Assembly (NCBI RefSeq): GCF_963921235.1
Contig: NC_086108.1
Span: 32,118,001-32,182,000, forward strand
DNA: 64,000 bases
Source of the DNA: Mobula hypostoma
Lineage: Eukaryota
Direction: 5' to 3'
Under the pieces are notes generated by a model. That model did not search any database. It saw only the letters and a list, made by a program, of their open reading frames with translations, and had not been told where the DNA came from. This document shows, in pieces, positions 11,217-62,335 of the stretch (positions within the stretch are counted from its first letter, which is position 1; every line of letters begins with the position of its first letter). The position numbers were made by a program, and so were the translations under genes.

Positions 11217-12275
11217 CTAAAGAAAACAAAATGTTAAAATTTTAACCATATTTTGTGCATTTAACCTTAGTTATTAAGCAAAGCAATCAGGCAAACTGAA
11301 AACACTCCTGTAGATTCTGATAAATATTTTCTCTGTTTCTGAAATGAAGCTCAAATGTAAAACAACATTTTGTTGAGTTGACCTATTTTGTGGCACTCAG
11401 GTACCAGTGAAACTTGCAGATGTACAAGTGGCATAATGAAGAGTCAAATATTTTAATGATAGCATCCAACTATGTATTAGGATCCGAGAAGTTTGCAAAT
11501 AAAAACAATAGAACACATTAATGTAAAAGCTGAACACTGTGGATTCAGCAATTCTGAAATAAAAACAAAAAACTGCTGGAGATATTCAGTAGGTCTCCAT
11601 GGAAATAGAACCAGAGTTAAAAGTTCAGATCAAAGACCCTTCATCAGAAGGGTTTCTTCGTGTTAACTCTAGGATGTTAATGTATGCTCGAACAGCACAT
11701 CCAGAAAGGTGGCACTTCCTCCTGCTGTTTAGGGCAAGGCACTCATGACAGCTGCACTCTTGAAGATATGAAATGGGACTACCTTGGAATGGACACCTTA
11801 GAGGAATGGGCCAGTTGGGCCAAAGGGCATATTTCCATATTGTATAACTTAATGATTCTATGGCAAAATATATTTGCAATTGGACAATCATTGTACCAGG
11901 CATCAAGGGACAGTGAAAAAGTTGCCTTGAAGACTGTTCATACTGAACAAATCATTATACAGTTCAAGGTAAATGCAGAATAAAGTGCAACAGCTACGAA
12001 GAAAGTGCAGTGTAAGTCAACAATAAGAAACAAGATCATAATCAGGTAGATTGTATGGTCAAAAGCCCATCTTATTGTATTAAGAAACCATTCAATAGTC
12101 TTGTAACAGCAGGGTAGAAACAGAACAACCCAGGTTTAGATGCACGATTGGAGGGCTGCCCTTCTAGAGGAGACTTTTATGGAATAGGTCATCCTGACCA
12201 GACTCGTTCTGTCCTTTAACCAACCTCATGAGTATCTCCAGTAGTTTCTGTTCTTTGTTAAGAAAGTACACTAAC

Positions 12276-12362
12276 TTGATTCTTTGTCCTATCTTCTCGT
12301 TCTCGTATGTAGCTGAAAATAACCCTTTCTGTCTCTTCCTGCAGTTTTGGGTACCTGCCCAG
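12276..12362 (-). CDS. DNM3: Dynamin exon 11 equivalent (LGRYPKLQEETERVIFSYIREREDRTKNQ)
   Basis: YP.L.EETER....IRERE.RTK.Q; 87 bp; acceptor TTTACAG, donor GTTAGT; phase 0 on both sides. Confidence 0.93.
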
Positions 12363-14293
12363 CTGTAAAGATAAATAACATTTACTTAAATTCTTTAAGG
12401 TGAAAATTCATTCATCTAACGAAACCACTTATCTTAATATTATCAAAAGTACAGTATGTTTACTACACTTAATACTAATTGGTTTCTATGATTGTTTATG
12501 TAATTCCCCACAGATGGCCGATTCAAAATTCAAAATGAAGACATCCTGATGTATGAACTATGTTCTAAATACAATGAAAATGTATTTTAGAATGTGCTAA
12601 ATAGAAGAATGATGTTCACAAATAAATTTTCAAAGAAATTTATTTGTTAAATATTTTATATGGATGGAAAGATTCAACTACAGCTAGAAAAGATTTGGTT
12701 TCATCTGAACAACTTCAAGTTGTCAAATAGTGGCTATCATATAGAGTAAATGTAAACTTCCATCATAAAACTGAAATGAAATTGCCTCCTTTTTAAAACG
12801 AGCTGTCGAATCCAAATGTTACCAAGAAGCTTATGGCACTATCTATAACACACATCAAACATGCTCAACGTGAAGGAAAATTCATCCGATGGTGGAAACC
12901 TAAAATAAACTCACAGAAAGTGCTGCTGATACCAAGCAGGTGAGGCAGAAACTGTTGAGAGAGAAACAGAGTTAATGTTTCAGCTTGACGTAGGTCAGAG
13001 AAAACATTCTCAATCAAAACAATAATGTTTTCTCTCTTCACAGATGCTGCCTGGCTTATGAACTTTTCCCTTAACTTTCTGTTTATGGATTATTATGTTA
13101 AGCAATGGAACACAAATAATATTTTCACTATTATTAAAAGTAGTGAAAGCTTACAGACACCAAGATTCATCAATGGTTAACAAATTGAATATAAAATAAA
13201 TCTGCAGAATATTAGACAAGGGATTATTTACTCAGGAACTGAATAGGCCAGAATGTACCATCAACAGCTATTCATTTTTGCTTACTGCTTGCATAAATAT
13301 GAGCTACAGACCAACTTTTTGCCAAACTATTGATGTCTGTCTACGTGTAATCCAAAGGGGCATGGACCTGAAGTGGCAATAGGACATAGTGTGACAGATG
13401 TCAGTTGGACAGTTCAGTCAAGTGTCATTATCAAAACAGTCAAACATTGTAAATTCTGAATGCCCAGAATTTTCAGAAACATTTAAAATCTAAACAAAAA
13501 AAAACTCTTCTTTATTGTTAGTTTAAAACATAATTTCACAAGAACTCTTGAAAACATTGTTAGCTGCAACAGTGGTTTTCCCAGATATTCTCCAACACTA
13601 GACTCAGCAGATTAAAGCTTGGAAAGAAGCAGCAAATTTGGTCACCTGAATGAGGATCAGCTGCAAGGGGGAAAAGTGAGAATTAAGTAGTTTACATTTT
13701 TTGAATTAGTGAGCTTGTTTTCACATTTTTAATTAGTTTTGGGATTTGGGTGTTCATATGGATGTCTCAAACTTCCTGATACATACAAGTTGTCAATTCA
13801 GTGTGAAACTAATGCTGCTTCCAAACAAACTGTGGCCTACCACAATGCCTTGTAATTTCCGATAGCCTTTTATGGTCGTTGCTTACTTTAGAACTAGAAA
13901 TTAAGATTATAAAAATATTTTTATTTATATATTCCAAAAATATATTTGCCCATAAAGGCAGTACTTATTCCACAAGGGAATATACTCTACAGTAACCTCT
14001 GCAACTAAGGAAGCCAAAGGCATGACAAACAGACTTGAACAGCGAATCATATGTGTTTTCTTTGTGGACCCTTACGTGTATCTCAGGTGAGGCATTTATG
14101 TTAATTTTTCCTAGCAGAGCAGTACTGAATAAAGATCATCCCAGATTATGGTAAGAGCTCCACTCCTGTGAAATTCTCATAACTCAAACATTTCACAAAT
14201 TGGAAGTGCAACAGCAAATGGTGTTCCCACATGGCAGAAGATGCCTAGAGCCCTACAACAGCCAGCAAATCGTATAATTGTATCTATGGACTA

Positions 14294-15723
14294 CAGTGCT
14301 GATAAAACGTATTCAACTCCTTGGAAGCTTTCATGTTTTATTGTTTTACAACATTTAATCACAGCGGATTTAATTTGGCTTTTTTGACACCGATCAATAG
14401 AAGAGAGTCTTTCATGTCAAAGTGAAAACAAACCCCTAAGTGATCTAAATTAATTACAAGATTGCATAAGTACTCACCCCTTTCAAGTCAGTATTTAGTA
14501 GATGCACCTTTGGCAGCAATTACAGTCTTGAATCTGTGTGGATAGGTCTCTATCAGCTTTGCATATCTGGTTACAATTTTTTCTCATTCTTCGTTACAAA
14601 ACTGTTCAGATTTTCAAGTCCAGCTACAAATTCTCAATTGGATTGAGGTCTGGACTCTGACTTGGCCACTCCAGGACATTAACTTTATTTGTTTAAGCTA
14701 TTCCTGTGTAGCTTTGACTTAATGCTTGGGGTCATTGTGTTGCTGGAAAGCAAACCTTCTCCCAAGTCGCTATTTTCTTGCAGACTGCATCAGGTTTTCC
14801 TCGGATTTCCCTGTATTTTGCTGCATTCATTTTACCCTCTACCTTTACAAGCCTACCAGGGCCTGCTGCAGTGAAACAACTCCACAGCATGATGCAGCCA
14901 CCACCATGCTCCAATGTATGGATGGTGTGTTTTGGATGGCATGTGGTGTTTGGGTTACACCAAATATAGCGTTTAGTCTGATGGCCAAAAATCTCAATTT
15001 TGTTTTCATCAAACCATAGAACCTTCTTCCAGCTGCCTTCAGAGTCTCCCACATGCCTTCTGGCAAACTCTAGCTGAGATTTCATTGGAATTTTTTTCAA
15101 CAGTGGATTTATCTTTGCCACTCTCCCACATAAAGCTGCATCTGGTCAAGCACCTGGGCAACAGTTGTTGTATGTACAGTCTCTCCCATCTCAGCCACTG
15201 AAGCTTGCAACTCCTCCAGAGTTGTCATAAGTCTCTTGGTGGCCTCCCTCTCTAGTCCTCTTCTTGCATGGTCATTCAGTTTTTGAGGATGGCCTGCTGT
15301 AAGCAGATTTACAGCTGTGCTATATTCTTTCCATTTCTTGATGATTGACTTAAAAGTACTCCGAGGAATACTCAGTGGCTTGGAAACTTTCTCGCATCCA
15401 CCTCCTGATTTGTGCATCACAAAAACCTTTTCGTGGAGATGCTCGGAGTGTTCTTGGTGTAGTTTTTGCCAGGATATTGACTCACCAGCAGTTGGACCTT
15501 CCAGATTCAGGTGTATTTTTACGACAATCAATTGAAAGACCTTGCCTGCGCACAGGTCTCCAAAAACAGATCTAATTATGTGACTTCTAAAACCAATTGA
15601 CTGCAACAGTGATGATTTGGTGTGTCATATTAAAGGGGGTGAATACTTATGCAATGATACAATGTTGTAAAGCAATAAAACATGAAAACTTCCAAGAAGG
15701 ATGAATACTTTTTAGAGGCACTG
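14294..15723 (-). mobile_element. Tc1/mariner (IR/DR, Sleeping Beauty-like) DNA transposon with decayed transposase
   Basis: TA|CAGTGC...GCACTG|TA ends; imperfect terminal inverted repeats of about 60 bp; transposase motifs WKKVLWFDENKIE, HGGGCIMLWSCF and WPSQSPDLNPIEN (~14630-14680). Confidence 0.92.
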
Positions 15724-16718
15724 TACGTAAACCAGACACTTGTAACTTGAGAGAACCTGTAATCCTTATCATGGCCTGAGGGATAGACTTCAGGAGTATT
15801 GTATGAGCTCAATCAATTGTGAATACTGTCACAAAATCATCTGGTTTTAAGTGTCATGCTGGTTGAGGTAGGACCCACAGATCTTGCTGTAAACTTGATG
15901 CAAAATAGTAAAACTTATAGAGGTACACTACATCATTAATTATAAGTCTCAAAGTATAGGGTAATCCCTTTCAAAAACAGAAGAACATAAGAAATAGAAA
16001 CAGGAGGTTGTCACTTATCTAAAATACTTTACTCGGCATTTGAAAGAGAATTCAACACAGAAGATGGTGATTCTATGAAGGTATGTCTTCTCACCTCACT
16101 TCTGCATGGCCAACCGCTTATTTTGAGAATTTGAAACCTGGCTCTAGACTCATCCGTCAAGGGAATCACCAACTCCCTCTGTATCTGCATTTCTCCTGTC
16201 AAGCCACATAAGAAATTTTTGATAATCACTAATTCATCTAGAGTCAAGAGGATATCACAGAATGGTTGGAGAACAGAAGAAATTTGGCCCATTATGTTCA
16301 CCCTGGCTTTCTACCAGACTGATCCCTGAACCTCCTTTAGAACTATTTATTCTTTATTGCTCCATCTCATTCTGCCCACTAAAATACATCAGCTCACATT
16401 TCTCCACATTTGCCAGATGTTTGCCCCTCCACCAGACCGTTTATATTCTGCTGCAATTGATCATTACTTTCTTCACACTGGCATATTTTGTATCATCAGT
16501 GAACTTAGAAATTGTGGCATTCACTACTAAATCTCAACTTTAACTTGAACTGAAAGATATCATGTGTTCTACAATGCCAATTCAAATTGAATAAATAACA
16601 TTTCAACTGCTTTTTATGCTTGTTAATTATAAGACGAATATTTTGAGACAATAGCAAATTTTTCTGTGCATTGTATATCAACACATAAAGATCAACATTT
16701 CCTTCATTGGTAAAGATC

Positions 16719-18391: not shown

Positions 18392-18502
18392 GCATGTAAA
18401 ATGGCTAGTAAGAATGTTTTGAGATATTGTATTAGAAAGGTTGAATCTTTCAACCTTACTAGCACAATATCTCAAGACATTATTACTAGCCACTGTACAT
18501 GC
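18392..18502. repeat. Long inverted repeat (54-bp arms, 3-nt loop)
   Basis: 18392-18445 versus the reverse complement of 18449-18502: 47/54 identical by manual comparison. Confidence 0.9.
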
Positions 18503-25879: not shown

Positions 25880-26520
25880 TATGAGAACACAGAACAGTAC
25901 AGCAAAGGAAATGCCCATTGGCCCATGATGTCTGTGGCAACCATGATATCAATCAAAACTAGTCGCATCTACCTGTACATGTCCAGTGTCCCTCCATTTG
26001 CTGCTGTTCATGTGCCTGTCTAAATTCCCATTAAATGTTGGCATTGTATCTGCTTCCACCACTTCCTCTGGCAACACATTCCAGATACCAACTGCTCTTG
26101 AGTAAAAAAAACTTGCCTTGCAAATCTCCTTTAAACCTCCTTCCTTTCTCACTTTAAATCTAATATTTGACATTTTCTTCCGGTGTAAAACAAAACTGAC
26201 CACCTATCCTGTCTATGCTTCTCATAACTTACATACTTCAATCAAGTCACCCCTCAGCTAGCAACATTCCTGAGAAAACAAAGTTCTTCTTTAATACTTC
26301 GTCCTGACAAAGGGTCTCGGCCTGAAACGTCGACTGCACCTCTTCCTACAGATGCTGCTTGGCCTGCTGCATTCACCAGCAACTTTGATGTGTGTTGCTT
26401 GAATTTCCAGCATCTGCAGAATTCCTGTTGTTTGCGTCTTCTTTAATACTGACAACTTCTCAAGTGAAGCTCTTTTACATCCTTTCCAAAGCCTCCACAT
26501 CCTTACTATAATGTAGTGAC
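25880..26520 (-). mobile_element. CR1 LINE 3' fragment (hosts the ribozyme-bearing insert at 26299-26436)
   Basis: ORF 25949..26203 (RAVGIWNVLPEEVVEA); CR1-type tail agaacacagaacagtacagc. Confidence 0.75.
26299..26436 (+). mobile_element. Short non-autonomous Penelope-derived element (hammerhead module plus 3' tail)
   Basis: Nearly identical to the 3' end of the PLE at 31972-32105; gtcCTGACAAagggtctcggcctGAAAcgtcgactg; perfect 14-bp TSD TCTTCTTTAATACT (26285-26298, 26437-26450). Confidence 0.88.
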
Positions 26521-26654
26521 CAGATATACATACAGTGCAGCATCAGGTTAGAATAAGGTTCCATTTCTGAAAGTTGCTTATACCTGTACTGTTCATAAAT
26601 CGGAAATGAATGCAAACCCCGTGGGAGAGAAGACGAGAGGACCACAAAAACAGC

Positions 26655-28829: not shown

Positions 28830-29039
28830 CACACACAAAATGCTAGAGGAACTCAGCAGGCCAAGCAGCATCTGTGGAAAAGAGTATAGTTGATGTTTCG
28901 GGCCAGGCAGGACAGAAAGTCTTGTCCCGAAACGTTGATTGTACTCTTTTCCATAGATGCTGCCTGGCCTGCTGAGTTCCTCCAGCATTTTGTGTGTGTT
29001 GCTTGGATTTCTAGCATCTGCAGATTTTCTCCTGTTTGT
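28830..29039 (+). mobile_element. Short Penelope-derived element with an inverted partial copy at its 5' end
   Basis: Arm ~28826-28902 is the reverse complement of ~28927-29001; flanking direct repeat GACTTTCAGCAA (28818-28829, 29040-29051). Confidence 0.82.
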
Positions 29040-30520: not shown

Positions 30521-30601
30521 TAATACAAGACAATGCAGTATAAAACAATGGATTATTTAATTTGGCTTGTTTCAAACTAGATAAGTTGGCTTAGTTACAG
30601 C

Positions 30602-31440
30602 CACAAAATGCTGGAGGAACTCAGCAGGCCAGCAGCATTCATGGAAAACATTTCGAGTCAAGGCCCTTCATCAAGACTGGAACAAAAGATGAGAAGTTAA
30701 GTCAAGAAGGTGGGGGAAAGGGAGGAAGAAGTACAAGGTGGTAGGTGATAGGTGAACTGGTAAAGGGGAAAGGTGAAGTAAAGGGCTGGAGAAGGAGGAA
30801 TCTGAGAGGAGAGAGTAGAAGGCATGGAAGAAATGGGAGGAGGAGCACATGGTTAAACAGTCAGAAGGCAGCAGAGATCACAGAGGGGAGACAGTGAGAG
30901 AGGGTTTCACTGAACTCCTGAAGGGAAGATATGAACTTCTTCAGGATAGGCATCCCTGGAAGAGACTTCACAATGTAGTAGTAGCACAAAGACGAGAAAA
31001 TCTGCAGATGTTAGAAATTCAAGCAACACACACAAAATGCTGGAGGAATTCAGCAGGCCAGGCAGTATCTATGGAAACGACTAAACAGTCGACTTTTCAG
31101 GCCAGGACCCTTCATCAGGACTGGAACAAAAGATGAGAAGTTAGATCAAGATGATTGGGTAAAGGGAGGGGCATTAGATCAACAAGGTGACAGGTGATAG
31201 CTGAAACTGATAAAGGGGAGGGGTGAGGTAAAGACTGGGAAGTTGATAGGTAAAAGAGATAAATGTCTGGAGAAGGGGGAATCCAATAGGAGAGGGTAGA
31301 AGATCAAGGAAGAAAGGGAAGGGGGAACATAAGGTTGAAGAGTCGGGGGGGCAGCAGAGAACACAGAGGGGAACATTGAGAGAAGGTTTCACTGAACTGC
31401 CATTAAAGGGAAGATTTAAACTTCTTTAGGGTAGCATCCA
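30602..31440 (-). mobile_element. Head-to-tail dimer of a ~444-bp Penelope-derived unit, each with a hammerhead motif
   Basis: Units ~30602-30985 and ~30990-31440 share the same blocks in order: tail, cccttcatca(a/g)gactggaacaaaagatgagaagtta, purine-rich tract, ggtttcactgaact...ggcatcc. Confidence 0.8.
31086..31123 (-). ncRNA. Minimal type-I hammerhead ribozyme motif (one stem-III change)
   Basis: Minus strand cagtc-CTGATGA-agggtcctggcct-GAAA-aGTC-gactg: both core boxes and a perfect 5-bp stem I. Confidence 0.7.
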
Positions 31441-31971
31441 AGTTGTTTAGCACAAGGAAGCTTGCAGACCAGATGGATATTATCAGTTAGCATATCAAAA
31501 GCGGATCAATGAATAGTTGGAAGATTTGTGTACTCATAGAGTTAGCTCCACAACATTAACTGAGAGTACCTGGGAAATGTGTCTCCTAGAAACTTTCAGA
31601 TCACTTGTGTTCAAAGTTATCTGGAAAATTATTGCATGTGTGTGAAGCCACCCAAGTGGCAAAGAAATGGTATAAATGAAGAGGGAATTTCAGGCTTTTT
31701 AGGAATGATTGAGGAACATCAAGAAGCATGACAGAAACACGGGGTGAACTAGAATCTATTCCTCCACTTTCAATAGCTGTAACAGATGTCGAGTCTGTCA
31801 GCAGCTCATGGGTATGTCTTTTTAGCTTACAAGAATTGTATGAGTGTGTTGGAAATCCTTTGTTTTAGAAATGGTTCTAATTTGTAAGTATTTAATAAGA
31901 TAAAAATCCTTTGAGAGCGGGTGTTGTTTGAATTCAACCATTTATCACTAAAAATAAACAAAATAAATGAA

Positions 31972-34480
31972 AACAACAGGAATTCTGCAGATGCTGGAAA
32001 ATCAAGCAACACACATCAAAGTTGCTGGTGAACGCAGCAGGCCAAGCAGCATCTGTAGGAAGAGGTGCAGTCGACGTTTCAGGCTGAGACCCTTCGTCAG
32101 GACTAACTGAAGGAAGAGTGAGTAAGGGATTTGAAAGTTGGAGGGGGAGGGGGAGATCCAAACTGATAGGAGAAGACAGAAGGGGGAGAGATAGAGCCAA
32201 GAGCTGGACAGGTGATAGGCAAAAGGGGATACGAGAGGATCATGGGACAGGAGGTCCGGGAAGAAAGACGGGGGGGGGGGAACCCAGAGGATGGGCAAGA
32301 GGTATATTCAAAGGGACAGAGGGAGAAAAAGGAGAGTGAGAGAAAGAATGTGTGCATAAAAATGAGTAACAGATGGGGTACGAGGGGGAGGTGGGGCCTT
32401 AGCGGAAGTTAGAGAAGTCGATGTTCATGCCATCAGGTTGGAGGCTACCCAGACGGAATATAAGGTGTTGTTCCTCCAACCTGAGTGTGGCTTCATCTTT
32501 ACAGTAGAGGAGGCCGTGGATGGACATGTCAGAATGGGAATGGGATGTGGAATTAAAATGTGTGGCCACTGGGAGATCCTGCTTTCTCTGGCGGACAGAG
32601 CGTAGATGTTCAGCAAAGCGGTCTCCCAGTCTGCGTCGGGTCTCGCCAATATATAAAAGGCCACATCGGGAGCACCGGACGCAGTATATCACCCCAGTCG
32701 ACTCACAGGTGAAGTGTTGCCTCACCTGGAAGGACTGTTTGGGGCCCTGAATGGTGGTAAGGGAGGAAGTGTAAGGGCATGTGTAGCACTTGTTCCGCTT
32801 ACACGGGTAAGTGCCAGGAGGGAGATCAGTGGGGAGGGATGGGGGGGACGAATGGACAAGGGAGTTGTATAGGGAGCGATCCCTGCGGAATGCAGGGGGG
32901 GGGGAGGGAAAGATGTGCTTAGTGGTGGGATCCCGTTGGAGGTGGCGGAAGTTACGGAGAATAATATGTTGGACCCGGAGGCTGGTGGGGTGGTAGGTGA
33001 GGACCAGGGGAACCCTATTCCTAGTGGGGTGGCGGGAGGATGGAGTGAGAGCAGATGTATGTGAAATGGGGGAGATGCGTTTAAGAGCAGAGTTGATAGT
33101 GGAGGAAGGGAAGCCCCTTTCTTTAAAAAAGGAAGACATCTCCCTCGTCCTAGAATGAAAAGCCTCATCCTGAGAGCAGATGCGGCGGAGACGGAGGAAT
33201 TGCGAGAAGGGGATGGCGTTTTTGCAAGAGACAGGGTGAGAAGAGGAATAGTCCAGATAGCTGTGAGAGTCAGTAGGCTTATAGTAGACATCAGTGGATA
33301 AGTTGTCTCCAGAGACAGAGACAGAAAGATCTAGAAAGGGGAGGGAGGTGTCGGAAATGGACCAGGTAAACTTGAGGGCAGGGTGAAAGTTGGAGGCAAA
33401 GTTAATAAAGTCAACGAGCTCTGCATGCGTGCAGGAAGCAGCGCCAATGCAGTCATCGATGTAGCGAAGGAAAAGTGGGGGACAGATACCAGAATAGGCA
33501 CAGAACATAGATTGTTCCACAAACCCAACAAAAAGGCAGGCATAGCTGGGACCCATACGGGTGCCCATAGCTACACCTTTAGTTTGGAGGAAATGGGAGG
33601 AGCCAAAGGAGAAATTATTAAGAGTAGGGACTAATTCCGCTAGACAGAGCAGAGTGGTGGTAGAGGGGAACTGATGAGGTCTGGAATCCAAAAAGAAGCG
33701 TAGAGCTTTAAGACCTTCCTGATGGGGGATGGAAGTATATAAGGACTGGACGTCCATGGTGAAAATAAAGCGGTGGGGGCCAGGGAACTTAAAATCATCG
33801 AAAAGTTTAAGAGCGTGAGAAGTGTCACGAACATAGGTCGGAAGGGATTGAACAAGGGGTGATAAAACAGTGTCGAGGTATGCAGAAATGAGTTCGGTGG
33901 GGCAGGAGCAAGCTGAGACAATAGGTCAGCCAGGACAGGCAGGTTTGTGGATCTTGGGTAGGAGGTAGAAACGGGAAGTGCGGGGTGTGGGAACTATAAG
34001 GTTGGTAGCAGTGGATGGGAGATCCCCTGAGCGGATAAAGTCGGTGATGGTGTGGGAGACAATGGCCTGGTGCTCCTTAGTGGGGTCACAATCGAGGGGT
34101 AAATAAGAGGAGGTATCCGCGAGTTGTCGCTGTGCCTCGGCAAGGTAGAGGTCAGTACGCCAGACTACAACAGCATCCCCCTTATCGGCGGGTTTAATAA
34201 TAAGGTTAGGATTAGTGCGGAGGGAGTGGAGAGCAGAGCGTTCCGAAGGAGTGAGGTTGGAATGGGGACAAGGTGCGGTGAAGTCGAGACGGTTGATGTC
34301 CCGTCGGCAATTAGCGATAAAGAGATCCAGAGCAGGCAGAAGACCAGAGCGGGGTGTCCATGAAGAAGAGGAGGGTTGAAGACGGGAGAAGGGGTCATCG
34401 GTGGGGGTGGAAGAGTCCTTGCCGAAGAAGTAGGCTCGGAGACGGAGACGGCGGAAGAAAAGTTCCGTATCATGGCGAAT
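31972..34480 (-). mobile_element. Young, 5'-truncated Penelope-like element (RT + GIY-YIG endonuclease)
   Basis: IKPADKG, YLLPKIHK, MDVQSLYTSI, GVAMG, RYIDD, FLDL, VIYCVRCSRCGLLYIGET. ORFs 33926..34654 and 32399..33757 are in the same frame, separated by one TGA. 11-bp TSD AAATAAATGAA (31961-31971, 34481-34491). Confidence 0.95.
32068..32105 (-). ncRNA. Minimal type-I hammerhead ribozyme in the PLE 3' region
   Basis: Minus strand tagtc-CTGACGA-agggtctcagcct-GAAA-cGTC-gactg: CUGANGA and GAAA boxes, stem II, palindromic ACGU stem III, GUC cleavage triplet, 5-bp stem I. Confidence 0.82.
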
Positions 34481-35341
34481 AAATAAATGAACTACTTTGT
34501 TAGCTGGAAGTACCTTCTCCTTGGCAGGTAGGAGTGACCCACCACTCCAATAGCGGGTAATGGCAGCTGAGCACGCTGTGGAGCATAAACAGGGGAATGA
34601 ACTAGACTTTGAAGATTGGGTAGTTACAGTATAACCTCCCTTTAGTAACGACACCTGTGGCTATTTATATTGGATAGGACTTATGGTCTTCATTGGTGTT
34701 TAGAATTTTGCAGTCAGCAAACCATCACAACAGGGATGATTTGACATAAGAATATTGATGAATTAATTTAGTGCTGCTATGGAGCAAAAAAAGATTCATT
34801 ATATTCCAGTAGTGCAAAAAAGCATCACTTTCACAGGTTTGGGGACAGAACCACTCTGCTTCCCTTCACTAAGCTGTTGCCTCCCATTGTTGTGTCCTAA
34901 TGAAGAGTATTGACCTGAAATATTAACATTATTGCCCTCCAGAGATACTGCCTGACTTGCTGAGTTACTCCAGCATTTGTGCGTTGCTCAAAAATTTCAA
35001 CTATCTACAGTTTCGCACGTGTGTGTCTGTGAGTGTGTTGCCTCCTTTATTGCTGATTCTAAATATAGCGGTTTAAAGTAATGTTGGAGCATTACTGTGG
35101 CAGTATATTGAATGTCTTGAATGTAAAGCATGAGTTCTTATCAAAGTACAGAGTAAATTTTTTTATCAAAAGATATATATAACTAATTATCTTGAGATTA
35201 TTTTTGCAGGCATTCACAGTAAAATGAGATACAACAGAATCAATGAAAAACACACAAACACTGACAAAGGAACCAATGTATAAAAGACCAAATGTGCAAA
35301 TTAAAAAAGCAATATATAATACTGAGATTACGACCCGTATA

Positions 35342-40061: not shown

Positions 40062-40835
40062 GAAACACAAAAAAGTCTGCAGATGCTAGAAGTACAAAGC
40101 AACACACACAAAATGCTGGAGGAACTCAACAGGTCAGACAGCATTTATGGAGATGAATAGATAGTCAATGTTTTTCCTTCAGGACTGAGAAGGGAGAAAA
40201 TGCCAGAATAAGAAAAGGTAGGGAAGGGGAAAGAGGCTAGCTGGAAGGTGATAGGTGAAGTCAAGAGGATGGGAAAGATCCTGAAGAATCACTGGGGACC
40301 CAAGTCACCCCAACCATAATCTATTCCAGCTGCTACCATCCAAAAAACAGTACCGCAGCATAAAAGCCAGGACAGCTTCTTCCACCAGGCCAACAGACTG
40401 ATTAACTCACGCTGATTTGAGTGTACTATGTTACATTGACTATTCTATTTATTACAAATTATTAATTACTATGATTGCACACTGCATATTTAGACAGAGA
40501 CATAATGCAGAGATTTTTACTCCTCATATATGTAAAGGACATAAGAAATAAAGTCAATTCAATTCAAGGGCTGGAGAAGGAGGAATTTGATAGGTGGGGA
40601 AAGCAGACCATAGGAGACAGGGAAGGGGGAGACTTGGGGAAGTAATAGGCAGGTGAGAAGAAGTAAAAGGTCAGAATGGGGAATAAATGAAGGGGAGGGG
40701 GATTTGTTTCACCAAAAGGAGAAATTGATGTTCATACCATCAGGTTGGATGGTATCTAGACGTAATACAAGGTGTTGTTCCTCCACCCTGAAGGTAGCCT
40801 CATCTGGCACAAATGGCGGCCATGGACCGACAAAT
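40062..40835 (-). mobile_element. Old Penelope 3' fragment interrupted by a plus-strand LINE 3' end (~40281-40566)
   Basis: Tail and GIY-YIG C-terminal sequence (ttgatgttcataccatcaggttgg...gttgttcctcc) homologous to 31972-32520; the insert ends in aataaagtcaattcaattcaa. Confidence 0.75.
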
Positions 40836-41889
40836 CAAAATTGACTCCCCCTTTTCCTCGTACAGCAATACAACATGAAAATAGGTTCTTCATCTAAATC
40901 CATGCTGACCATCAGGAATCTATTTACAATAATAACTTTAATCTCTCCGTATTTGTTTCAATATCTCCTGTCACCTGCAACCCACCCCTCAGACTCACTC
41001 ATCTACACACAAAAGGGCATTTACACCACGGCTAATTAATCTACCAACCCTACATGGTGCACGGATGCAGGGGAAGTCTGGAGTAAGAAACAGAGAGAAA
41101 GTGCAAACTTTACACCGATTGAATCACTGGATCTCTGTAGAACTACTAGCTGCCATGCTGCTGTTGTCCTGATGTATAGTTATGTTTTTGTGAAACACTG
41201 CAACATTATTTTAATGTTGAAGATGCAGTATAAATGCAAACTACAATGTTGTGCATAATTTAATCATAGTATACTGTGGTGGTACAGCAGCGAGTTAAAC
41301 AATGGGATCTAAATTGAATAAAGCTATCTGAATTAGAAAGAAAACTAGCTTCAGTAGCAACAAACTAACAGAAAGTTCATGAAGGAAATTTGCACTTCTT
41401 ACTTAGTCAAGCTTGTACATAACTTTAGACCTATCACAATGCAGTTGACTCCTAAATCCCCACTGATAAAGCTATGCAAGCCATTCAAAGTACAAAGTTT
41501 AAAGTAAGTTTCTTATGAAAGTACACATCATCACATGCAACCCTGCGATTCACTGCCTTGTGAACATACTCAATAAATCCAAAGGATAATAACCTTAGCA
41601 GAACCAATGAAAAACTGCATCAACTTAGGCATTGAACTGGTGTGCAAAGGACAACAAGTTTTCCAAATACAAAAAGAAACAAGTCATAATAATAGCAATA
41701 AGAAGAAGAGGAAATAAGTAATAAATATCAAGAACATGAGATGAAGAGTCCTTGAAAGTTAATACAATAGGTTGTGGGAACATTTCAGTGATGGGCAAGT
41801 GAAGTTATCACCTTTGGTTCAAGAGCCTGATGGTTGAGCGGTAATAACTGTGGTGGTGTGATTTCCGAGGCTCCTGTATAAAACCATTA

Positions 41890-51765: not shown

Positions 51766-52169
51766 CTGAGGACATTAAAGGCAAGACAAAACATCATTCT
51801 TGATACTGACTGCACTCAGAAAGTCTTTGTACATGTATCACTTAACACATGCACAGCAACTTCCAGCATTTTTCACACAAATATATTTTGCATGCAAAAG
51901 TGGAATTTCTTTTTACATTGTTTTATAAAGAAGAAAACCGAACATTCAAACAGGCAAACTCAGATAAAATTAGATTAAAACATAAAATGTAATGGCATCA
52001 AACTGAATAATTTATTTTTACTGAAAGTATTCATATACTTTCCTAACTGTAAGCAAACAATCCACCCATCACACAGAGAATACCTCTGTTTTTACTGCAA
52101 ATATTGTCGCATTTGGGAAAAAATGGAGCAAGATTAATTACCACTGAGAATAAGTCTGCAGATTTCCCT

Positions 52170-54220
52170 CCTGGCATTTATCTTTGTGTCACCCCATCCT
52201 CCCACCACCCCACCAGAGATAGGGTTCCTCATGTCCTCACCCACCACCCTGCCAGTCTCCACGGCCAGCACATAATTCTCTGTAACTCAAACCATCTCCA
52301 GCGGAATCCCACCACCAAGCACATCTCTCCCTCCTCCCACTTTCTGCTTTCTACAGGGATCGCTCCCTATGGAACTCCCTTGTCCATTCATCCCTCCCCA
52401 CTGATCTTCCTCCTGGCACTTATTCTTGCAAGCAGAACAAGTGCTACATCTGCCCCTACACCTCCTCCCTCACTAACATTCAGGACCCCAACGGTCCTTC
52501 CAAGTGAGGCGACGCTTCACCTACGAGTCCGTTGGGGCCATCTACTGTGTCTGGTGCTCCCAGTGTGGCCTCCTGTATATTGGCAAGTCCTGATGCAGAT
52601 TCGGAGACCACTTCGCCCAGCACCTACTTTCTGTCCACCAGAAAAAGCAGGATCTTCCAGTGGCCACCCATTTTAATTCCACTTCGCATTCCGATATGCC
52701 AGTCTATGGCCTCCTCTTCTGTCGCAATGAGCCCACACTCAGGTTGGAGGAGCAACATTTTATATTTTGTCTGGGTAACCTCCAACCTGATGGCATGAAT
52801 ATCGATTTCTTGAACTTCCAGTAATGACCCCCACCTCTTCTTCACCATTATCATTTTCCTCCTTCACCTTACCTGCCTATTACCTCCCTCTGGTGCTCCT
52901 AACTTTTTTCTTTCTTCCATGGCCTCCTGTCCTCTCCTATCAGATTTCCCCTCCTCCAGCCCTGTATCTCTTTCGCCAACTTCCCAGCTTTTTACTTCAC
53001 TTCATTGAGGGAGAGACTGTTGCTAATGGTCAACCCCAAGTATGTGAACTCATGGACCACTTCTAGATTGTAATTGTCGATGGTAATGACTGGTGTCTCC
53101 ACTACGTTCTGGGCAAGGACATTTGTTTTCTTTAGGCTGATGGTATGCCTGGAGTTCTTGCATGCCTTAGAGAAGCTGTCCATGAGAGCTTGTAGTTGCT
53201 GTTTGGTGTGTGAGATTATAGCAGCGTCATCGGCAAAGAGCAAAGAGCATGTCACGTATTAGTGACACTCTCTCCCTCGACGCTGAAATCAATAGGCATA
53301 TCGGCAAAGCAGCATCGATCCTTGCTCAACTCTCCTCGCGGGTCTGGGAGAATCCGAACCTCGCTACAAAGACCAAGACTGCCATGTACAAAGCATGCGT
53401 TATCAGCACCCTTCTGTATGGTAGCGAGACTTGGACCATCCACTCCAAACAGGAGAGGAAACTCAATAGTTTTCACCTACACAGCCTTCGCCACATCCTC
53501 GGCATCACCAGGAGAGACAAAGACCCAAACTCTGAGGGTCCTCTCCCGCACTGGACTTCCCACAATGTTCACGTTTTTAAGACAACACAGACACGCTGGC
53601 TGGGCTACATCCGTCGTATGAAGGATGGTAGACTGCCAAAGGACATCCTCTATGGAGAACTAGCAACAGGCAAGAAGAACGTTGGTAGACCCCAGCTTCG
53701 CTTCAAGGAGCTCTGCAAGCGTGACATGAAAGCCTTAAAAATCAACACAGAGTGCTGGGAGGATACAGCAGATGACTGTAACAAAATGGTGAGGTACTCT
53801 TCAGCAACACCTAGAGCAAGGTGAAAGAGTGATCCTGAGTCAGTTTGAGGAGAGGAGAGCTAAACAGAGAGCACAGCCGACAGCGGACAATAATTCCACG
53901 ACGCCCTACACATGCAGAGCCTGCCGTTCCAGGATCGGCCTCAATAGCCATAGTCGATGCTACTCGACAAACCAGTGACTACCAGAGGCGCAGTTCCCAT
54001 GGTCAACCACGACCGACGGAGGCCACACACACACTTCACTTCTCCCAGTTTCATCTATGACCTTGTGGTTCTTCCTCCCCTCCCCCACTTTCTTACACTG
54101 ACTCCTCATCTTTTTTTTTCCAGTCCCGATGAAGGGTCTCGACCTGAAACATCAACTGTTCTCTTTTCCATAGATGCTGCCTGGCCTGCTGAGTTCCTCC
54201 AGCATTTTGTGTGTGTTGCT
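52170..54220 (+). mobile_element. Decayed Penelope-like element 3' part (GIY-YIG, 3' UTR, decayed hammerhead at ~54121-54158), split by an RTE insertion
   Basis: PSSHHPTRDRVPHVLTHHP homologous to the young PLE ORF; cagtc-CCGATGA-agggtctcgacct-GAAA-catc-aactg; shared tail. Confidence 0.85.
53004..54032 (+). mobile_element. RTE-clade (BovB-like) LINE 3' part with an inverted 5' segment (~53004-53250)
   Basis: Minus strand: LLFADDAA...ISLKKTNVL...FTYLG. Plus strand: IGKAAS...YKACVISTLLYGSETW...RWLGYIRRM..GRLPKDILYGEL. (CA)n tail; 10-bp TSD ACTTCACTTC (52994-53003, 54033-54042). Confidence 0.9.
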
Positions 54221-55949
54221 GCAGATTACAAATCTGTCTTTAAAGATTTCAGTATTGGCTGGCAGTGTAACAAAACTAAAGACTGTGTTTTTCTTGAGAC
54301 TCAAGAGACTGTAGATTCTGGAAAATGGAGCGACACACAAAATACTAGCGGAACTTCATGCATTTTCCATTCAGGGAAATGGATAGTTGTCTTTTTGGGT
54401 CAAGACCCTTCAGTCCAGATGCAAAGTCTTGATCTGAAACATTGACTGCCCAATTCCCTCCAAAGATTCTGCCTGTGCCACTGATTTCCTCCATTTTGTG
54501 TTTGCCTAGATACATAATATAAATTTACACAATTTAATTCAAATATACACATGAAACCTACTGCAGTAGATAAAAGTGTACTTTCCAGTCTAAAGTTCCA
54601 GGATTAAAATTATGCATTGTAAACTATTATGCAAACCTGGAAAGTAATTCATGTAGTAATCTTAAAAGCAAAAATGATTATACGTTAAAATATCCTGTAT
54701 GCAGTTAAGCCAGTAAATTAACCTGGATGTCTTTCTGCAAACACAGATTTCTCCCACAACATAAATACAGCCAACTAATCAGTGGTTACTGTAGGAACAC
54801 TTGGTTTGAGGACTTAGCTTTTTACCAAATTACTTTGATCACAAGCAAACAAAGCATTGCATGAATGGACCAAGGCCTGATTTACTGCCCTTTCAGCTGA
54901 AATTACAGCAGAACTACCAAAAAATGTCATAATTATAAATGAAACTGCCAGAAACACATGTATGCATATTTAAACACAAACATTTATGTTGTTGTTTGGA
55001 ATTCCTTTCTTCTCCAAAGACTACATAATTTTGCAAGACACTCCAGAGTTTTCAAGGAAAATTAGGGCCAGAAATAATACATGCATGAATTATTCTTGCT
55101 GTAAAATATCTTGAAAACACTGCACTTAATTTGATAGTGAGTTATTATAGTGTTTTGAAAGATAATTATTGATAAGCAAACTCTGTTGTAGAACAAATAG
55201 TTTAATGGATATGGATGCAATTCTCAGAATAATATTTCATACTGTATTTAAATATACAGTATGTACTGTTCATTTATGTTAATGTTAATTTGTTTATTAA
55301 CATTTTATATTATGGCTTCTACCCTGATCTTATACACAACTACCAATCTGCAATTCATGCTCTATCGAATGTTTAGCTTATATTCAAAAATTTGCCAATT
55401 CACTTCTGTTATTTTCAATCTGTTTGGCAGCTCAGTTTGCTTGATCTCAGATACTGGGCACCAGGAATTCCTAGAAATGCCTCTAACAGCAATGGGTATC
55501 AACAAAGGAGATTCCTATCATCAGGATCACTTAATCTTTCTGGCAGCCCACTTCAAAGTCAACATCAAGTGTCCCCCCCCCCCCACCCAATGTTGATTAC
55601 AAAGTTCAGGCTGACCAATTATTCTTTTTGTTTACTACAAGTTTCTACTGCTGGCTATTTCATAACAGTTTTAGGCAGTCAGTAAACCGAAGTTCAAAAA
55701 CAAAGATCACATTCCCTTTGTAAAACTCAACTGAATCCTTAATTAGAATAAGTGTATTAACTGTTTAATTAAACTGACATGCAGACATAGGAACAGAAAT
55801 ATTTCGTGTTATTCAGAAAATTTGAAATAGATCTCAATTTCAAATTTGTGCTATAATACCTTACATATAACTGACAAAAGAACGTATACAAAGATAAGAG
55901 AAATGGTTCATTTTGGTAAGATAACTGTAAAAACCATGGAAAATAAGTA

Positions 55950-56856: not shown

Positions 56857-57026
56857 TCACATACAAGAGAAAATCTACAGATGCTGGAAATCCAAGCAAC
56901 ACAGACAAAACACTGCAGAAACTCAGCAGGCCAGGCAGCATCTACGGAAAAAGAGTATATTCAACATTTTGGGCTGAAACCCCTCATCAGTCTTGGCCTG
57001 AGTTTCTCCAGTATTTTGTATGTGTT
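56857..57026 (-). mobile_element. Short Penelope-derived element with decayed hammerhead and a short inverted arm
   Basis: Shared tail; CTGATGA at ~56984-56990 (minus); 14-bp TSD GCAAGCATGCCTAA (56843-56856, 57027-57040). Confidence 0.8.
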
Positions 57027-57577
57027 GCAAGCATGCCTAACACGCTGAACAATGCTTAGATCCCACTTGGAGGACCATGAACAAATCTGATCACGCCATC
57101 AGAAAAAAAAGAATGAGGAATAGAGAATAAGCTAAAAAGAATTACTGGAGGGATATAAAAACTCCAAGCTTACACCTATCAAGAAAAATTAAGAGGATCT
57201 CACTTATGAGGGAAAAAAAACTTAGAATTAACCTGATAGAGATTTTAAGATTATGTAAGGGTTCAATAGGGACAGCGTAATTATGTACATTAACAATGTA
57301 AAATAATAGCACACAATATAACAAAGTATTTGATAAATATTATCTGGCTCTTATATCCCAATGATATTTTTTTTTAATTTTGAAGGGAAACAAATAGAGA
57401 TAGTTAATTTATTGCACTAATACTGCATAATTGTTTTTTCTATTTTACAGACTCAAAGTATTATTTAGAAAACAACAGTAACCATCCAAAAGACATCTCT
57501 GTTGTAAGTATCAACTTTCACTTGCTTCTGTATTACAAGTTAAATTGAAAGATCAAGATCACTCTTTAAAAACTTGC

Positions 57578-57645: not shown

Positions 57646-59253
57646 CTACGAAAATTAAAAAAAAGAACATTTTTGTCCTCATACCAGAAGACACTGTGAC
57701 ATTAATGCATGATGGAACTACACATTTAAGAAAGCCTGATGTTGTAGCTTTTGTTTAATGATATTGCATCTGAAATATTAATCCTATACACTTGTTCCAT
57801 CTTTATTTAATTTTCTATTTTTTTTTAAAAAAAGGCTAGTTAAAGATTGTACTTTCCCAAATTAGTTTGCTGTATTCTTTCATGTGTGCATATCCTTGAA
57901 TATGATTAGGCTGCTCAACCTATTTGATGGCATCACCGATTGCTGGATGGCCAACACATATTGCCCACTTTAACCATTTGAAACAAACACTCTTTCAAGC
58001 TTTTGAAAGCAGAACTTCTGCTGATCTTGTTCTTTAACTGATCATGCAAAATTATAATTATAAAAAGGTTAATTTCCTCAGCAATTGTCAGGTCTTAGAA
58101 CAGTCCTGATATAAAGCAGAAAATGTTGGAAATGCTCAGCAGGTCAGAGTATCTGTAGTGACAATTCATCAGAACTTGGATATAATATAAACATATTTTA
58201 AGATGCAGAATAGATGGTAACAGTGGCATGCTGGCAAAGTGAAAACAAATTTGTGAAAGGGTAGAAAGTATGAGAGATTAAATAACAAAAAAGGGTGATA
58301 AAAGGTGAAATATGCCCTTCATTAACCTTGTACTTTACCCTCTGTCACTTAACATTTCCATTTCTCCATCCTTTCTACTTTTTAATCCACATTGTGAGAA
58401 GAGCTAAACATAAAGAGATTCTGCAGATGCTGGCAATTTGCAACAGTAAACTTTGTTTCAGATCAGATATTATACAACCTGCTGTGCATTTTCAGTTTTT
58501 GTTTATTACAGCAGGAAATTTGTTTAAAGCATCCAATTTAATTAATTCACACAACAATCTTAATTTATTGATCTATAGAACCTATGTTTTAGAATTATGC
58601 CGATAGAGAAGCACAACATAACTGATTTGAGCTTCTTGAGCCTTTGAGCTGCGAATGACTATTGCGGTTATAAGCAAATATTGTTTATTGTGCTCTTTTT
58701 AACAGTAAAATCATTTAAAATATTGATAAGGCACACTTTCATTAAGAACTCTATTATCCCATACTTGGGTTTCTTGTGGTCTATTCCTACTAGTACAAGA
58801 TGAATAATTTCTGCAATACAAATATTTGCTAACGATTTCAAGTTTGTAATCAAATATATTTTAAATGCATTTGTTCCAGTTAACATTCCACTCTTCACAA
58901 CATGTTTACAATTTATCAAATTTTTGAGAACATTTCTTTGTATGGAGGGATTTCTGGGGTCTGGAATAGCCGAAGTAGAGAATATTAGTTCTGTCAAAGA
59001 ATAATTAGTAAGTACTGATGCTTTCACACAGTGTACTGTTGTGAGATAGTTTTTTTTTTACTTCTAGCTAACAGCCAGCAGAGACTTTAATATCTGTATT
59101 CAATGCTGTATATCTGTACAGTTCTAAGAGGTTTGGAAGATTTCAATATTATGGGGCTGAAGGACCAAAACCCCACTGATTACTTAAATGATTTACATTT
59201 CAGATAATTTTGGTGAATAAAATAAATAGAATGAGATTTTTCAAAACTTATAC

Positions 59254-59389
59254 CTTCACCAGTTCAAACGGAAATCGCTCATGGAATATTTTGTTGATTC
59301 TTGCACCGCCTGATAATTCTGCAGTATCCACATGATTGCCTGATCCTTCAATTTTCTTGTCAAAATCCACAGAGAACTGCTTTAACATC
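59254..59389 (-). CDS. DNM3: Dynamin exon 8 equivalent ([45 protein letters not shown])
   Basis: [21 protein letters not shown] signature; AG/GT boundaries; 136 bp; phase compatible with neighbouring exons. Confidence 0.95.
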
Positions 59390-59998: not shown

Positions 59999-60132
59999 CG
60001 CTCGTTTGTTATATGCCATGTCGTATGACATGGGCAATCATGGTTCTTCCCAGCCATTATCAATACTTTTCAGAGATTGTTTTCCTGGAGTCAGTGGGCA
60101 TAACCAGGACTTGTGATGTACACCAGCTGCTC
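59999..60132. mobile_element. Short retroposon-like insert (unclassified, probably a truncated SINE)
   Basis: Flanked by the 11-bp direct repeat ATTTGATTCAT (59988-59998, 60133-60143). Confidence 0.5.
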
Positions 60133-61139
60133 ATTTGATTCATTGGTTTCATTTAAAAAAATCCCATTATATGATTATTTGTTGAACACAATTTTTTTTT
60201 AAATCAATAAAATCTAAGTATTTGTTACTTGGAATCTGACATAACACCACTGATTCAAAGCTATGCTGTCAATTAACTCCCATGAGTCACGCTTGGTGTA
60301 AAGCTCACCGGGCAAGTATTATATGGTCATTGAGGTTGCTGCATGTTGAAGCAGCAGCAGCAATAATATTGATGCCAACAGAAGTATGGAGAAGAAAAAC
60401 AAAGGCTTATCCACAGGAGACTTAAGCCTGGGGCATCAAGAAGAATGTGAAGGTTGACAATTGAGAAGCATCTAAGCATGTGTGTGTGAGTTATGCGCAT
60501 GCTCGTATAAAGAAACAATTTCCACTGTCAAAAGGATTGGTGACCAAAGGACACAGATTAAAGGGGGGAGAAAAAATCATGAAAAGAATTCTATGCAAGA
60601 CGCAAAGATTGGTCCACCAAGAACAACGGTGCATTTTTAACGGCTGTATTATTTCAGGATTAAATCCAGAAATAAATTTCCATTGAATGGCTGAAGAAAC
60701 ATGGAGTTTTTCCACCAAACTGTCTTTGAGCAGTGAACAAATGGAAATACTTAAAAATGACATTGACAAATCTCTTATGTAAGGATATCAAGGGATAATG
60801 AGCAACAGCAAGAAAATGAATTTGCTCTGATCTAAGCAGGTGGACAAATAGATTCACAGAAGTGAAGGTTTTCCTCTGCTACCCCTTCTTTGACTACATC
60901 ATGCAGTTCTTGAAGCCAACCATAAAAAAAGCCCAACCAAACCTACCACAGATTTAGACAAACCTCCCAAGAGCTTCTACACAAATATAAGCAATATTGG
61001 GACGTTATTTAATTTACATTGAAATTTGTCTACAATTGTAAATTTGTTCTTTATTATTTTCAAGAACAAATCAATCTCTCTTTTAAAATACACTGTTTTG
61101 AAAGAGTACAGATTCAACTAAGATGAAACAAATACTTTA

Positions 61140-62335
61140 GCGACGCTAGGGATTTTCCAAATGCTGGAAAACCAGAGTAATACACAAAATACTGGAGGAA
61201 ATCAGCAGGTCACGCTCAGTGCAACCATCTCTACCGCATCTATTCTCAGAATGACACTTTCTTTTCTAGAATATCTGAGATGGTTTTCCTTTCTCTACCA
61301 TTGATGCTGCCCTCAACCACATTTCCTCCATTTCCTGATCATCTGCCCTCACCCCATCTTCCCAGTGCCACAACAGGGATAAAGTTCCTCTTGTCCTTAC
61401 CTTCCACCCCTCAAGCTTCTGTACCCAGCACATCATTCTACCAACAAACACATCTTTATGTCCTCCCACTTTTGGCAGGGACCGCTCTCTCCAAAACTCC
61501 CTTGTCCATTCGTCCCTCCCCACTGATCTCCTTCCTGCCACTTACCTTTGCAAGTGGCACAAATGCAGCAACTGCCCAGTCACCTCCTCCATCACAATCA
61601 TTAAGAGATCCAAACAGTCCTTCCAAGTGAGACCACATTTCACTCGCAAGTCTGTCAGGGTCATCTAATGTATCTGATTTTCCCGGTTCAGACTCCACAA
61701 CATTGGTGAGACCCAATGTAGTAGACTGGGGGACTACTTTGTCGAGCACCTTCACTCCGTCCACAACAGACAGGATTTCCCAGTTTCATTTCCGCTCCCC
61801 AATTCCAATCCAACATCTCAGTCCATGACCTCCTCTACTGCCACGATGAGGCCACTCTCAAGTTAGAGGAGCAACACTTCATATTGCACCCAGGTAGCCT
61901 TCAAAGTGATGGTATGAATATAGATTTCTCTAACTTCTGGTAATTTCTCCCCTTGTCACCAATCTCTCTTTTTTCATTTTTCATTCTGGCTCCCCTCCTA
62001 CCCCTTTCTCTTTCCTTCAACTGCCTATCAGTCCCCCTCGGATGCCCCTCTCCTTCCCTTCCTCCCATGGTCCATTCTCATCTTATTCAGCCCTATCACC
62101 TCCATGCTTTTCACTTCTTCCTCCTCCCCCACCTTCCCCCTCACCTGACTTCACATATCACCTTCCAGCTTGTACTCCTTCCCCACCCCACCCCACCTTC
62201 TTATTCTGGCTTCCTCCCTCTTCCTTTCCAGTACTGATGAAGGGTCTCAGCCTGAAATATCAACTACTTATTTCCCTCTATGGATGCTGTTTGACCTGCT
62301 GATTTCCTACAGCATTTCATGTGTGTTACGCAAAA
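61140..62335 (+). mobile_element. Decayed Penelope-like element 3' part with inverted tail copy at its 5' end (~61140-61215) and hammerhead remnant (~62229-62266)
   Basis: GIY-YIG-region homology to the young PLE; cagta-CTGATGA-agggtctcagcct-GAAA-tatc-aacta. Confidence 0.8.

Follow-up and report, generated by a model that had tools for sequence, protein, structure and literature searches.

Short interspersed modules in a dynamin gene of Mobula hypostoma are probably 3' ends of a Penelope-like element with relics of a minimal hammerhead ribozyme

The window analyzed in this study is a stretch of 64,000 nucleotides from the genome of the ray Mobula hypostoma (assembly GCF_963921235.1, contig NC_086108.1, positions 32,118,001 to 32,182,000) and contains a family of short modules with hammerhead-like sequence motifs in the introns of a dynamin gene. 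These modules very probably represent the 3' ends, i.e. a pseudo-long terminal repeat (pLTR) with or without a tail, of an endonuclease-containing (EN+) Penelope-like element (PLE) of the Neptune/Nematis type that spread in several amplification waves, and their motifs would be the broken relics of a published minimal hammerhead. Minimal type-I hammerheads in the pLTRs of metazoan PLEs were described by Cervera and De la Pena in 2014 (PMC4209133), so that the idea of a PLE-borne hammerhead is already published and the family of the window is a further case of it.

The module at positions 31969-32115 (-) was recognized as the 3' terminus of an element of 2.6 kb that runs from an open reading frame (ORF) into the module. 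This longest copy of the family (31969..34546, -) is a 5'-truncated PLE of the young subfamily and comprises the ORF, a 3' untranslated region (UTR), the hammerhead and the tail. Pfam matches, motifs and homologues characterize a 508-aa open frame (32399..33925, -) with a reverse transcriptase (RT) domain at residues 48-162, including a YIDD motif at residues 155-158, a linker with the cysteines C375, C380 and C383, and a GIY-YIG endonuclease at residues 411-485. The protein has 916 homologues at E<=1e-20, the best match, at 96% identity, coming from Mobula hypostoma. In an alignment of 48 proteins, into which 47 of the 120 homologues listed were taken, the C-x4-C-x2-C cysteines of the linker were invariant in all 48 sequences and the CCHH residues of the endonuclease (C418, C421, H440, H456) were conserved in at least 90% of them. 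Since a CX2-5CxxC finger between the RT and the endonuclease defines the Neptune and Nematis clades (Craig et al. 2021, PMC8557442), the deduced protein sequence places the element among the EN+ PLEs of Neptune or Nematis type. An upstream part of the ORF with a DKG motif (33929..34546, -) is 50% identical over 208 aa to the homologue P0012, starting at residue 104 of the latter, and is divided from the 508-aa frame by a single in-frame stop at 33926-33928; the respective alignment column contains arginine in 44 of 47 homologues, and a change from arginine to stop thus fits CpG decay. This copy lacks approximately the first 100 residues as well as the 5' pLTR. Continuity of the module with RT-GIY-YIG coding sequence was detected in four copies, namely the one at 31969 and those at 61282-62332 (+), 52165-54218 (+) and 40841-40063 (-), and a short copy of the young subfamily agrees with the tail of the long copy at 129 of 133 nt (97%). 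Altogether, the family displays the characters of an EN+ PLE, including an ORF with an RT and a GIY-YIG domain at the C-terminus (with one in-frame stop), the CCHH residues, pLTRs in partial tandem and inverted copies, an optional tail and target-site duplications (TSDs).

A nhmmer profile built from eight seed copies, which match by construction, yielded 20 module matches in the window (E-values of 1.4e-43 to 0.0016), the best hit in the reversed window as control having an E-value of 0.16. The matches correspond to about 14-15 insertion sites, i.e. one site per ~4.5 kb and one match per 3.2 kb. An earlier note on this DNA had listed 14 strand-sites at a density of about one per 5 kb; all 14 gave a family match. 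Six further matches were located at 12879-12986 (-), 13025-13057 (+), 56993-57042 (+), 58117-58164 (-), 58414-58445 (-) and 61144-61215 (-). In an all-against-all comparison, the module family, which according to the earlier note looks like the dominant SINE (short interspersed nuclear element) of the genome, headed the repeats of the window by number of loci (14 intervals); hand-set coordinates yield ~7.2 kb or 11% of the window. More bases are covered by a long interspersed nuclear element (LINE) family (10.2 kb in eight intervals); we assume the latter to be of CR1 type from the kind of its ORF, for which Pfam gives RVT_1 only.

The share of contigs from public sequencing runs that matched a 1.2-kb stretch of the element indicates that the repeat is very abundant: 302,091 of 29,726,878 contigs (about 1%) matched in the DNA run X1, and 20,326 of 1,736,423 in the run X10, which is only guessed to be RNA. 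The summed depth in X1 was 8.6-9.1 million across positions 32104 to 31982 in comparison with 114 in a flank bin, although depth in contig runs is no copy number and contigs reveal neither RNA ends nor expression. Two raw-read DNA runs gave merely 2 and 0 matching reads for the same stretch. The drop in depth at 32105 was set aside as evidence for a 5' end, because older subfamilies diverge at this position.

The only fully intact minimal type-I hammerhead of the window lies at 32068..32105 (-), with a predicted cut between 32073 and 32072. It consists of a 5-bp stem I, the CUGACGA box, an extra A, a 4-bp stem II with a tetraloop, GAAA, a palindromic CG and UC, and thus shows the palindromic 15.2-16.2 positions, the extra base after A9 and the G10.1-Y11.1 pair. 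A strict descriptor of the minimal type-I hammerhead (CUGANGA, GAAA, UH, stems I and II) was passed by two of the 20 matches, with C3 at 32100 (-) and 31118 (-), as compared to a mean of 0.03 and a maximum of 1 in 30 shuffles; with one core mismatch allowed, the copy with C3 at 26304 (+) passed as well. The very large hammerhead load implied by the earlier note accordingly applies to motif relics, the core and the stems being kept in only about one tenth of the matches. Likewise, each of the listed sites belongs to the family, but the whole ribozyme is missing at several of them: both arms at 28890-28940 begin inside stem II and are devoid of CTGANGA, the 54400 (-) copy lacks the first four core bases, stem II is lost at 40165 (-), and at 30645 (-) neither the cleavage triplet nor the 3' strand of stem I is left.

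Core lesions were counted in an alignment of 15 copies, five of the 20 matches being left out as short or devoid of the ribozyme. The 11 invariant core letters carry 12 point lesions, four of which are CpG-type G>A changes, i.e. one in CTGACGA and three at G12 (one beside a deletion), and eight of which are of other kinds. Besides these lesions, deletions occur, and four copies are 5'-truncated within the ribozyme. In the ACGTCG segment, positions 15.2-16.2 are still CG in three of 15 copies, as are positions 17-1.1 in three of 15. The proposal that CpG transitions inactivated many copies is hence appropriate for most ACGTCG breaks and for just 4 of the 12 point lesions of the core. The observed-to-expected ratio of CpG in the window is 0.29. 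Position N7 is T in 9 of 12 copies, which is the majority state and harmless, and position 11.1 is U, forming a G-U wobble, in 9 of 15; the bias of TG over CA at 11.1-G12 (9 versus 2) is not significant (p 0.065). Core letters outside CpG deviate from the majority in 8 of 115 cells compared to 115 of 769 downstream (p 0.02, with non-independent copies), a pattern that selection on the source elements would produce.

A comparison with related elements was performed with 80 loci on metagenome contigs that were found by a protein-based scan; 55 of the matches reach near the C-terminus, and 48 remained when seven loci with less than 300 nt downstream had been dropped. Within 1 kb downstream of the ORF, core boxes without a pairing rule occurred in sense in 31 of 48 loci and in antisense in 2 of 48 (Fisher p 2e-10, the loci not being independent). 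The strict descriptor was passed in sense by 13 of 48 loci, in antisense by none and in none of 100 shuffles; 11 of the 13 hammerheads lie 93-138 nt past the protein match. All 13 contain a two-base spacer after GAAA and an extra A before stem II, neither of which is demanded by the descriptor. Among 16 box matches with the extra A from loci of at least 40% identity, several of which are near relatives, stem II pairs at three or more of four positions in 16 cases and stem I in 14. In 16 rows chosen by the descriptor, 90.3% of the cells pair, compared to 62.2% in shuffles and 26-42% in slid controls; changes on both sides of a pair were observed across families in 9 of 11 pairs, or in 8 of 9 when stems I and II are considered alone. 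The palindromic CG at 15.2-16.2 is present in 14 of these rows and the extra A in all 16. Core conservation and stem covariation, which the earlier note had named as checks, are thus found across families in descriptor-selected rows, and a failure of core conservation can be dismissed at this level because both the boxes and the pairing are kept in related elements. A covariance model built from the 16 rows yielded 33 matches in the 80 loci and ranked six known copies first in the window; a further match at 59226-59270 (17.9 bits) was rejected, as it overlaps the end of a dynamin exon and lacks the family flank.

Loci of 33-40% identity showed a different layout, with core boxes followed by CC after GAAA at 236-434 nt past the ORF match (L042, L047, L050, L051, L055, L058, L060, L061, L066, L072, L073, L076, L078 and L080); the hammerhead of this group is apparently a variant in which helix III is longer. 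The gene model P0034 of the zebra shark seemed by eye to end in a read-through peptide of the motif, but tblastn against two tails of the window gave no match to it at E<=0.05.

Several results weigh against the assignment of the modules to a hammerhead-bearing PLE. On the protein side, the Pfam matches of the 508-aa frame to RVT_1 (E 5e-5) and GIY-YIG (E 4e-4) are both under the curated gathering score, the linker motif is the single character behind the clade placement, and the window holds no full-length copy with a 5' pLTR. On the RNA side, no Rfam match was found in the window at E<=1, folding z-scores of single copies (-0.66 to 0.56) are no better than those of shuffles, and no convincing compensatory change was seen among the copies of the window. 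The covariation across families is partly circular, because the rows were picked by a descriptor that demands 3-bp stems. Finally, 9 of 14 element units are devoid of a TSD above the null and one more is borderline (p~0.05).

An alternative is that the motif is a protein-binding or promoter element keeping hammerhead-like letters rather than a working ribozyme, an explanation that would be compatible with the PLE identity and that we consider unlikely. It is favoured by the reports that published minimal hammerheads alone cut weakly or not at all (PMC4209133) and that, in the anole element, insertion in vitro was left unimpaired by catalytic mutations and the cut position showed no RNA ends (PMC11167929). 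The in silico misfolding of the monomer points in the same direction: for the intact copy, pairing between the core and the cleavage triplet is predicted with probabilities of 0.98-1.0 and at -11.0 kcal/mol compared to -7.0 kcal/mol for the open form. In a two-copy cofold, which we regard as uninformative, the active dimer is not the predicted minimum-energy form. However, the catalytic letters, the UH triplet and the stem pairing are retained across elements that are only 40-55% identical in protein, and the ribozyme of the anole element cuts in the presence of protein, with C3/G8 rescue (PMC11167929). The predicted burial of the core agrees with both the published inactivity of monomers and protein-assisted cutting. 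The two best-kept hammerheads (within 30984-32115, -) are 982 nt apart on the same strand, both being sense within the host intron; they could conceivably form a cis dimer, though one has a broken helix III pair.

It is improbable that the short modules are a self-propagating non-autonomous pLTR derivative, comparable to SINEs or retrozyme monomers, whose templates are short RNAs or circles produced by hammerhead cleavage. Indeed, 14 of the 20 matches are devoid of upstream element sequence, several TSD-flanked units measure ~135-210 bp, and retrozymes derived from PLE pLTRs have been reported, including one chondrichthyan case (10.64898/2026.07.22.740005). In the repeat maps, however, short units do not form a head-to-tail array anywhere in the window, no copy of the window has its 5' end clearly at the cut site, the young short copy is identical to the ORF-linked tail at 129 of 133 positions, and short copies of greater age are similar to ORF- or UTR-linked tails that are likewise older. 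Two or more head-to-tail units, each with a complete hammerhead, as expected of a retrozyme, do not occur, the sole tandem (30593-31439) having one broken ribozyme. A conventional Pol III SINE with a borrowed PLE 3' end can practically be dismissed despite the SINE-like size, density and TSDs of the short modules: the window contains no tRNA gene, the short copies share no 5' head, be it derived from tRNA, 5S or 7SL, because the TSDs abut the ribozyme, and A and B boxes, searched with patterns that we assumed to be standard, gave only scattered one-mismatch matches with no A+B pair in register inside the module. The view of the earlier note that the module is a PLE terminus and no Pol III SINE is corroborated by these data, by the continuity with the ORF in four copies and by the absence of an Rfam match.

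The insertion anatomy is consistent with the assignment to PLE 3' ends. In relation to a null distribution from 150 boundary pairs drawn at random (maximum 10 bp, 95th percentile 8 bp), TSDs of 14, 12, 14 and 10 bp were found at the units 26299, 28830-29039, 56857-57026 and 34894, respectively. The first is a 138-bp pLTR-plus-tail insertion of the young subfamily (26299..26436, +; TSD at 26285 and 26437) that starts 3-5 nt before C3 and has G8>A as its sole lesion. The second is a head-to-head fold-back pair (28830..29039, both strands; TSD at 28818 and 29040) with both arms starting within stem II and the tail confined to the plus arm. The third is likewise a head-to-head pair (56857..57026, both strands; TSD at 56843 and 57027), the minus arm of which begins at C3 and has a long tail and a G12>A change, and the plus arm of which begins past the ribozyme. 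The fourth is a decayed short copy (34894..35028, +; exact TSD at 34875 and 35036) whose start lies 3-12 nt before C3. At five sites, truncated arms are joined head to head, among them an old pair at 54305..54504 (both strands), with a plus arm from 3-5 nt before C3, a minus arm from N7 and the tail on the minus arm, and a very old pair at 12879..13057 (both strands). Relative to C3, the 3' ends fall into two classes at about +88..+99 (short) and +127..+139 (with tail), the optional tail of ~35-40 bp past the short pLTR end being located at 31969..32005 (-) in the longest copy. Wherever the head-to-head pairs are clear, one arm is short-ended and the other ends at +127..+139. Such arms with a one-sided tail correspond to the pattern published for PLEs, i.e. 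an inverted truncated pLTR with an optional tail of 30-40 bp (PMC8557442; PMC3846280).

At the tail-less ends at 28830, 57027 and 54219, the bases that follow in the element are identical to the initial 2-5 bases of the TSD, which resembles joining by microhomology. For the RNA 3' of the ribozyme at 31985-32060 (-), a long hairpin is predicted whose closure requires the tail, in addition to an inner short-end hairpin; this predicted hairpin is a candidate RT-binding structure, with a stability not above that of shuffles.

By analogy to the Anolis element PAc/Poseidon (PMC11167929), the element protein would nick the target and prime reverse transcription at one of two internal RNA sites in the pLTR and tail; the two start sites would give rise to the two classes of 3' ends, and reverse transcription would usually halt early or fold back. 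The modules are very probably dead-on-arrival 3' ends that were amplified in several waves in the ray genome. Selection would keep the minimal hammerhead solely in active source elements, whereas inserted copies would decay neutrally and fastest at CpG. The hammerhead would be inactive as a monomer and presumably need dimerization or the protein of the element for cutting, and its cut would not set the 5' end of inserted copies, many short copies running just beyond the ribozyme and stopping at its upstream edge.

With respect to the 5' ends, 12 copies reach C3, and six of them start within about -12..0 (26299, 34894, 54411, 56990, 11647 and 58176, the last two being old and weak), the other six extending 281-2430 nt further upstream. 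This cluster is significant with p 9e-9 under a constant stop rate and with p 1e-3 when the most generous null is applied and the two weakest copies are omitted. Among the eight copies starting further in, none has a start that clearly coincides with the cut site (+28). The alignment of the old arm at 13025 begins at +29..+36, but this arm seems to retain motif remnants upstream. Inverted copies in four homologous loci start at +1, -46, -62 and -489 from C3, so that the clustering is apparent in the window family only. A pyrimidine tract and YAG directly precede stem I in six copies with true upstream sequence; the YAG is not conserved in the homologous loci. The pyrimidine tract with YAG-UC before stem I agrees with the consensus of an initiator as well as with that of a splice acceptor. 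An intron of Drosophila virilis has its end at the 5' end of helix I (PMC4209133), and the promoter of Penelope is internal and of initiator type (PMC2377424). The cluster could thus be due to an RNA start, to a splice junction or to RT stalling. It is possible, although doubtful, that the element RNA starts at the 5' strand of stem I, that reverse transcription primed internally at the first pLTR/tail of the transcript runs off its 5' end to give many SINE-like insertions of ~135 bp, and that the hammerhead clips a ~30-nt leader, thereby switching the RNA off instead of defining the template. Alternatively, the cluster could result from stalling of the RT after it has unwound the ribozyme.

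Regarding the known systems, the hammerheads of the window share with the minimal hammerheads of PMC4209133 the type-I layout, the lack of loop 3, the palindromic 15.2-16.2 positions, the extra base between A9 and G10.1, the 5-bp stem I and the mostly single copies tied to truncated PLEs. Differences from the hammerheads described there are the ray host, the 4-bp stem II, U at position 11.1 in 9 of 15 copies and the density of one site per ~4.5 kb; thousands of minimal hammerheads per genome were reported for coelacanth and Xenopus, and the words shark, Callorhinchus, Leucoraja and Squalus are absent from the supplementary PDF of that paper. The RT, the CX2-5CxxC linker, the GIY-YIG domain with CCHH, the DKG motif, partial tandems, an inverted truncated copy and a 30-40 bp tail at one end are common to the Neptune/Nematis PLEs (PMC8557442); unlike in the accounts of the latter, microsatellite targeting is not evident at the TSD-defined sites of the window. 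PAc/Poseidon of Anolis, the two ends of which correspond to two internal RT start sites in vitro (Frangieh et al. 2024, PMC11167929), likewise has a pLTR hammerhead followed by two alternative 3' ends and insertions that are not bounded by the ribozyme cut. It belongs to another clade without the linker finger, its initiation loop is AC-rich in contrast to the UG-rich sense RNA at the short end here, and its ORF starts at stem II (PMC11167929), whereas the first core box of the intact young copy contains no AUG. The non-LTR retrozymes (10.64898/2026.07.22.740005) are also short non-coding type-I hammerhead units related to PLE pLTRs, but they form tandem units with a complete ribozyme each, which do not occur here; the tables of that preprint may name the family of the window. 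PLEs are present in all vertebrate lineages studied (PMC4350176), and a Penelope-like expansion in introns was reported for the whale shark (10.1101/443036). A literature search on PLEs and hammerheads of cartilaginous fishes returned nothing on the motif as judged by titles, and the family may well be annotated in Repbase or Dfam, which were outside the reach of this search.

The remaining copies differ in age and extent. The first unit of the partial tandem is a 3' fragment of an older subfamily with a long tail (30984..31439, -), whose hammerhead, with C3 at 31118, has an intact core and a broken helix III pair (AG); in the second unit (30593..30955, -) the hammerhead is deleted after GAAA and the end is short. 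A 3' fragment from the endonuclease end to the tail (40063..40841, -) has lost stem II and is split by a ~300-bp insertion at 40264-40566. The frameshifted 3' fragment at 52165..54218 (+) includes the linker, endonuclease and pLTR, has a tentative 9-bp TSD and carries U4>C in its hammerhead at 54121-54158; a ~1-kb LINE fragment (53004-54042) with a 10-bp TSD (52994, 54033), which we take to be RTE-like, is inserted in its 3' UTR. An old 1-kb 3' fragment (61282..62332, +) retains the thumb, linker and endonuclease with stops, and its hammerhead at 62229-62266 has intact core letters and a broken closing pair of stem I; an inverted 5'-truncated pLTR with tail (61144..61215, -) adjoins its 5' end. 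Old remnants comprise a short copy from C3 with A15.1>C and a lost stem I (11565..11647, -), a weakly aligned short copy with the first core box followed by an internal deletion (58117..58180, -) and a remnant that is largely tail (58414..58470, -).

The host gene was identified by a 48-aa exon at 62421-62564 (-) that matches dynamin, the best hit being a dynamin-2-like protein of Mobula birostris with 98% identity. Mapping of the Mobula birostris protein delineated a dynamin-2-like/dynamin-3a gene (11148-62567, -) with six coding exons at 62567-62421, 59388-59251, 57630-57577, 51770-51624, 12374-12264 and 11216-11148, including a 39-kb intron between 51624 and 12374. According to this map, all 20 module matches are intronic, 12 of them in sense and eight in antisense to the dynamin pre-mRNA (p 0.5). 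Other repeats of the window include a long decayed LINE at 19513-24634 (-) with ORF1-, endonuclease- and RT-like frames (RVT_1 match), which is presumably L1-like, DDE_1 transposase frames at 37413-39005 (+) with 78-bp inverted repeats at 39234-39311 and 45789-45866, and a Tc1/mariner-like remnant at 14292-15725 with a weak HTH_Tnp_Tc3_2 match and 70-bp matching ends. Fold-back palindromes unrelated to the module were located at 18387-18507 (59-nt arms, 3 nt apart) and 42725-42933 (71-nt arms, 67 nt apart).

Both copies that pass the strict descriptor lie in sense in the 39-kb intron, which suggests that intact intronic copies do little harm to the host transcript, and the toleration of an intact copy in this orientation within a dynamin intron is consistent with a ribozyme that is silent on its own. 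The family adds a PLE hammerhead of a cartilaginous fish that is very dense inside a host gene and present in copies of graded age. Since the 5' and 3' ends of the insertions record where reverse transcription started and stopped relative to the ribozyme, the family provides good material on the role of the hammerhead in PLEs.

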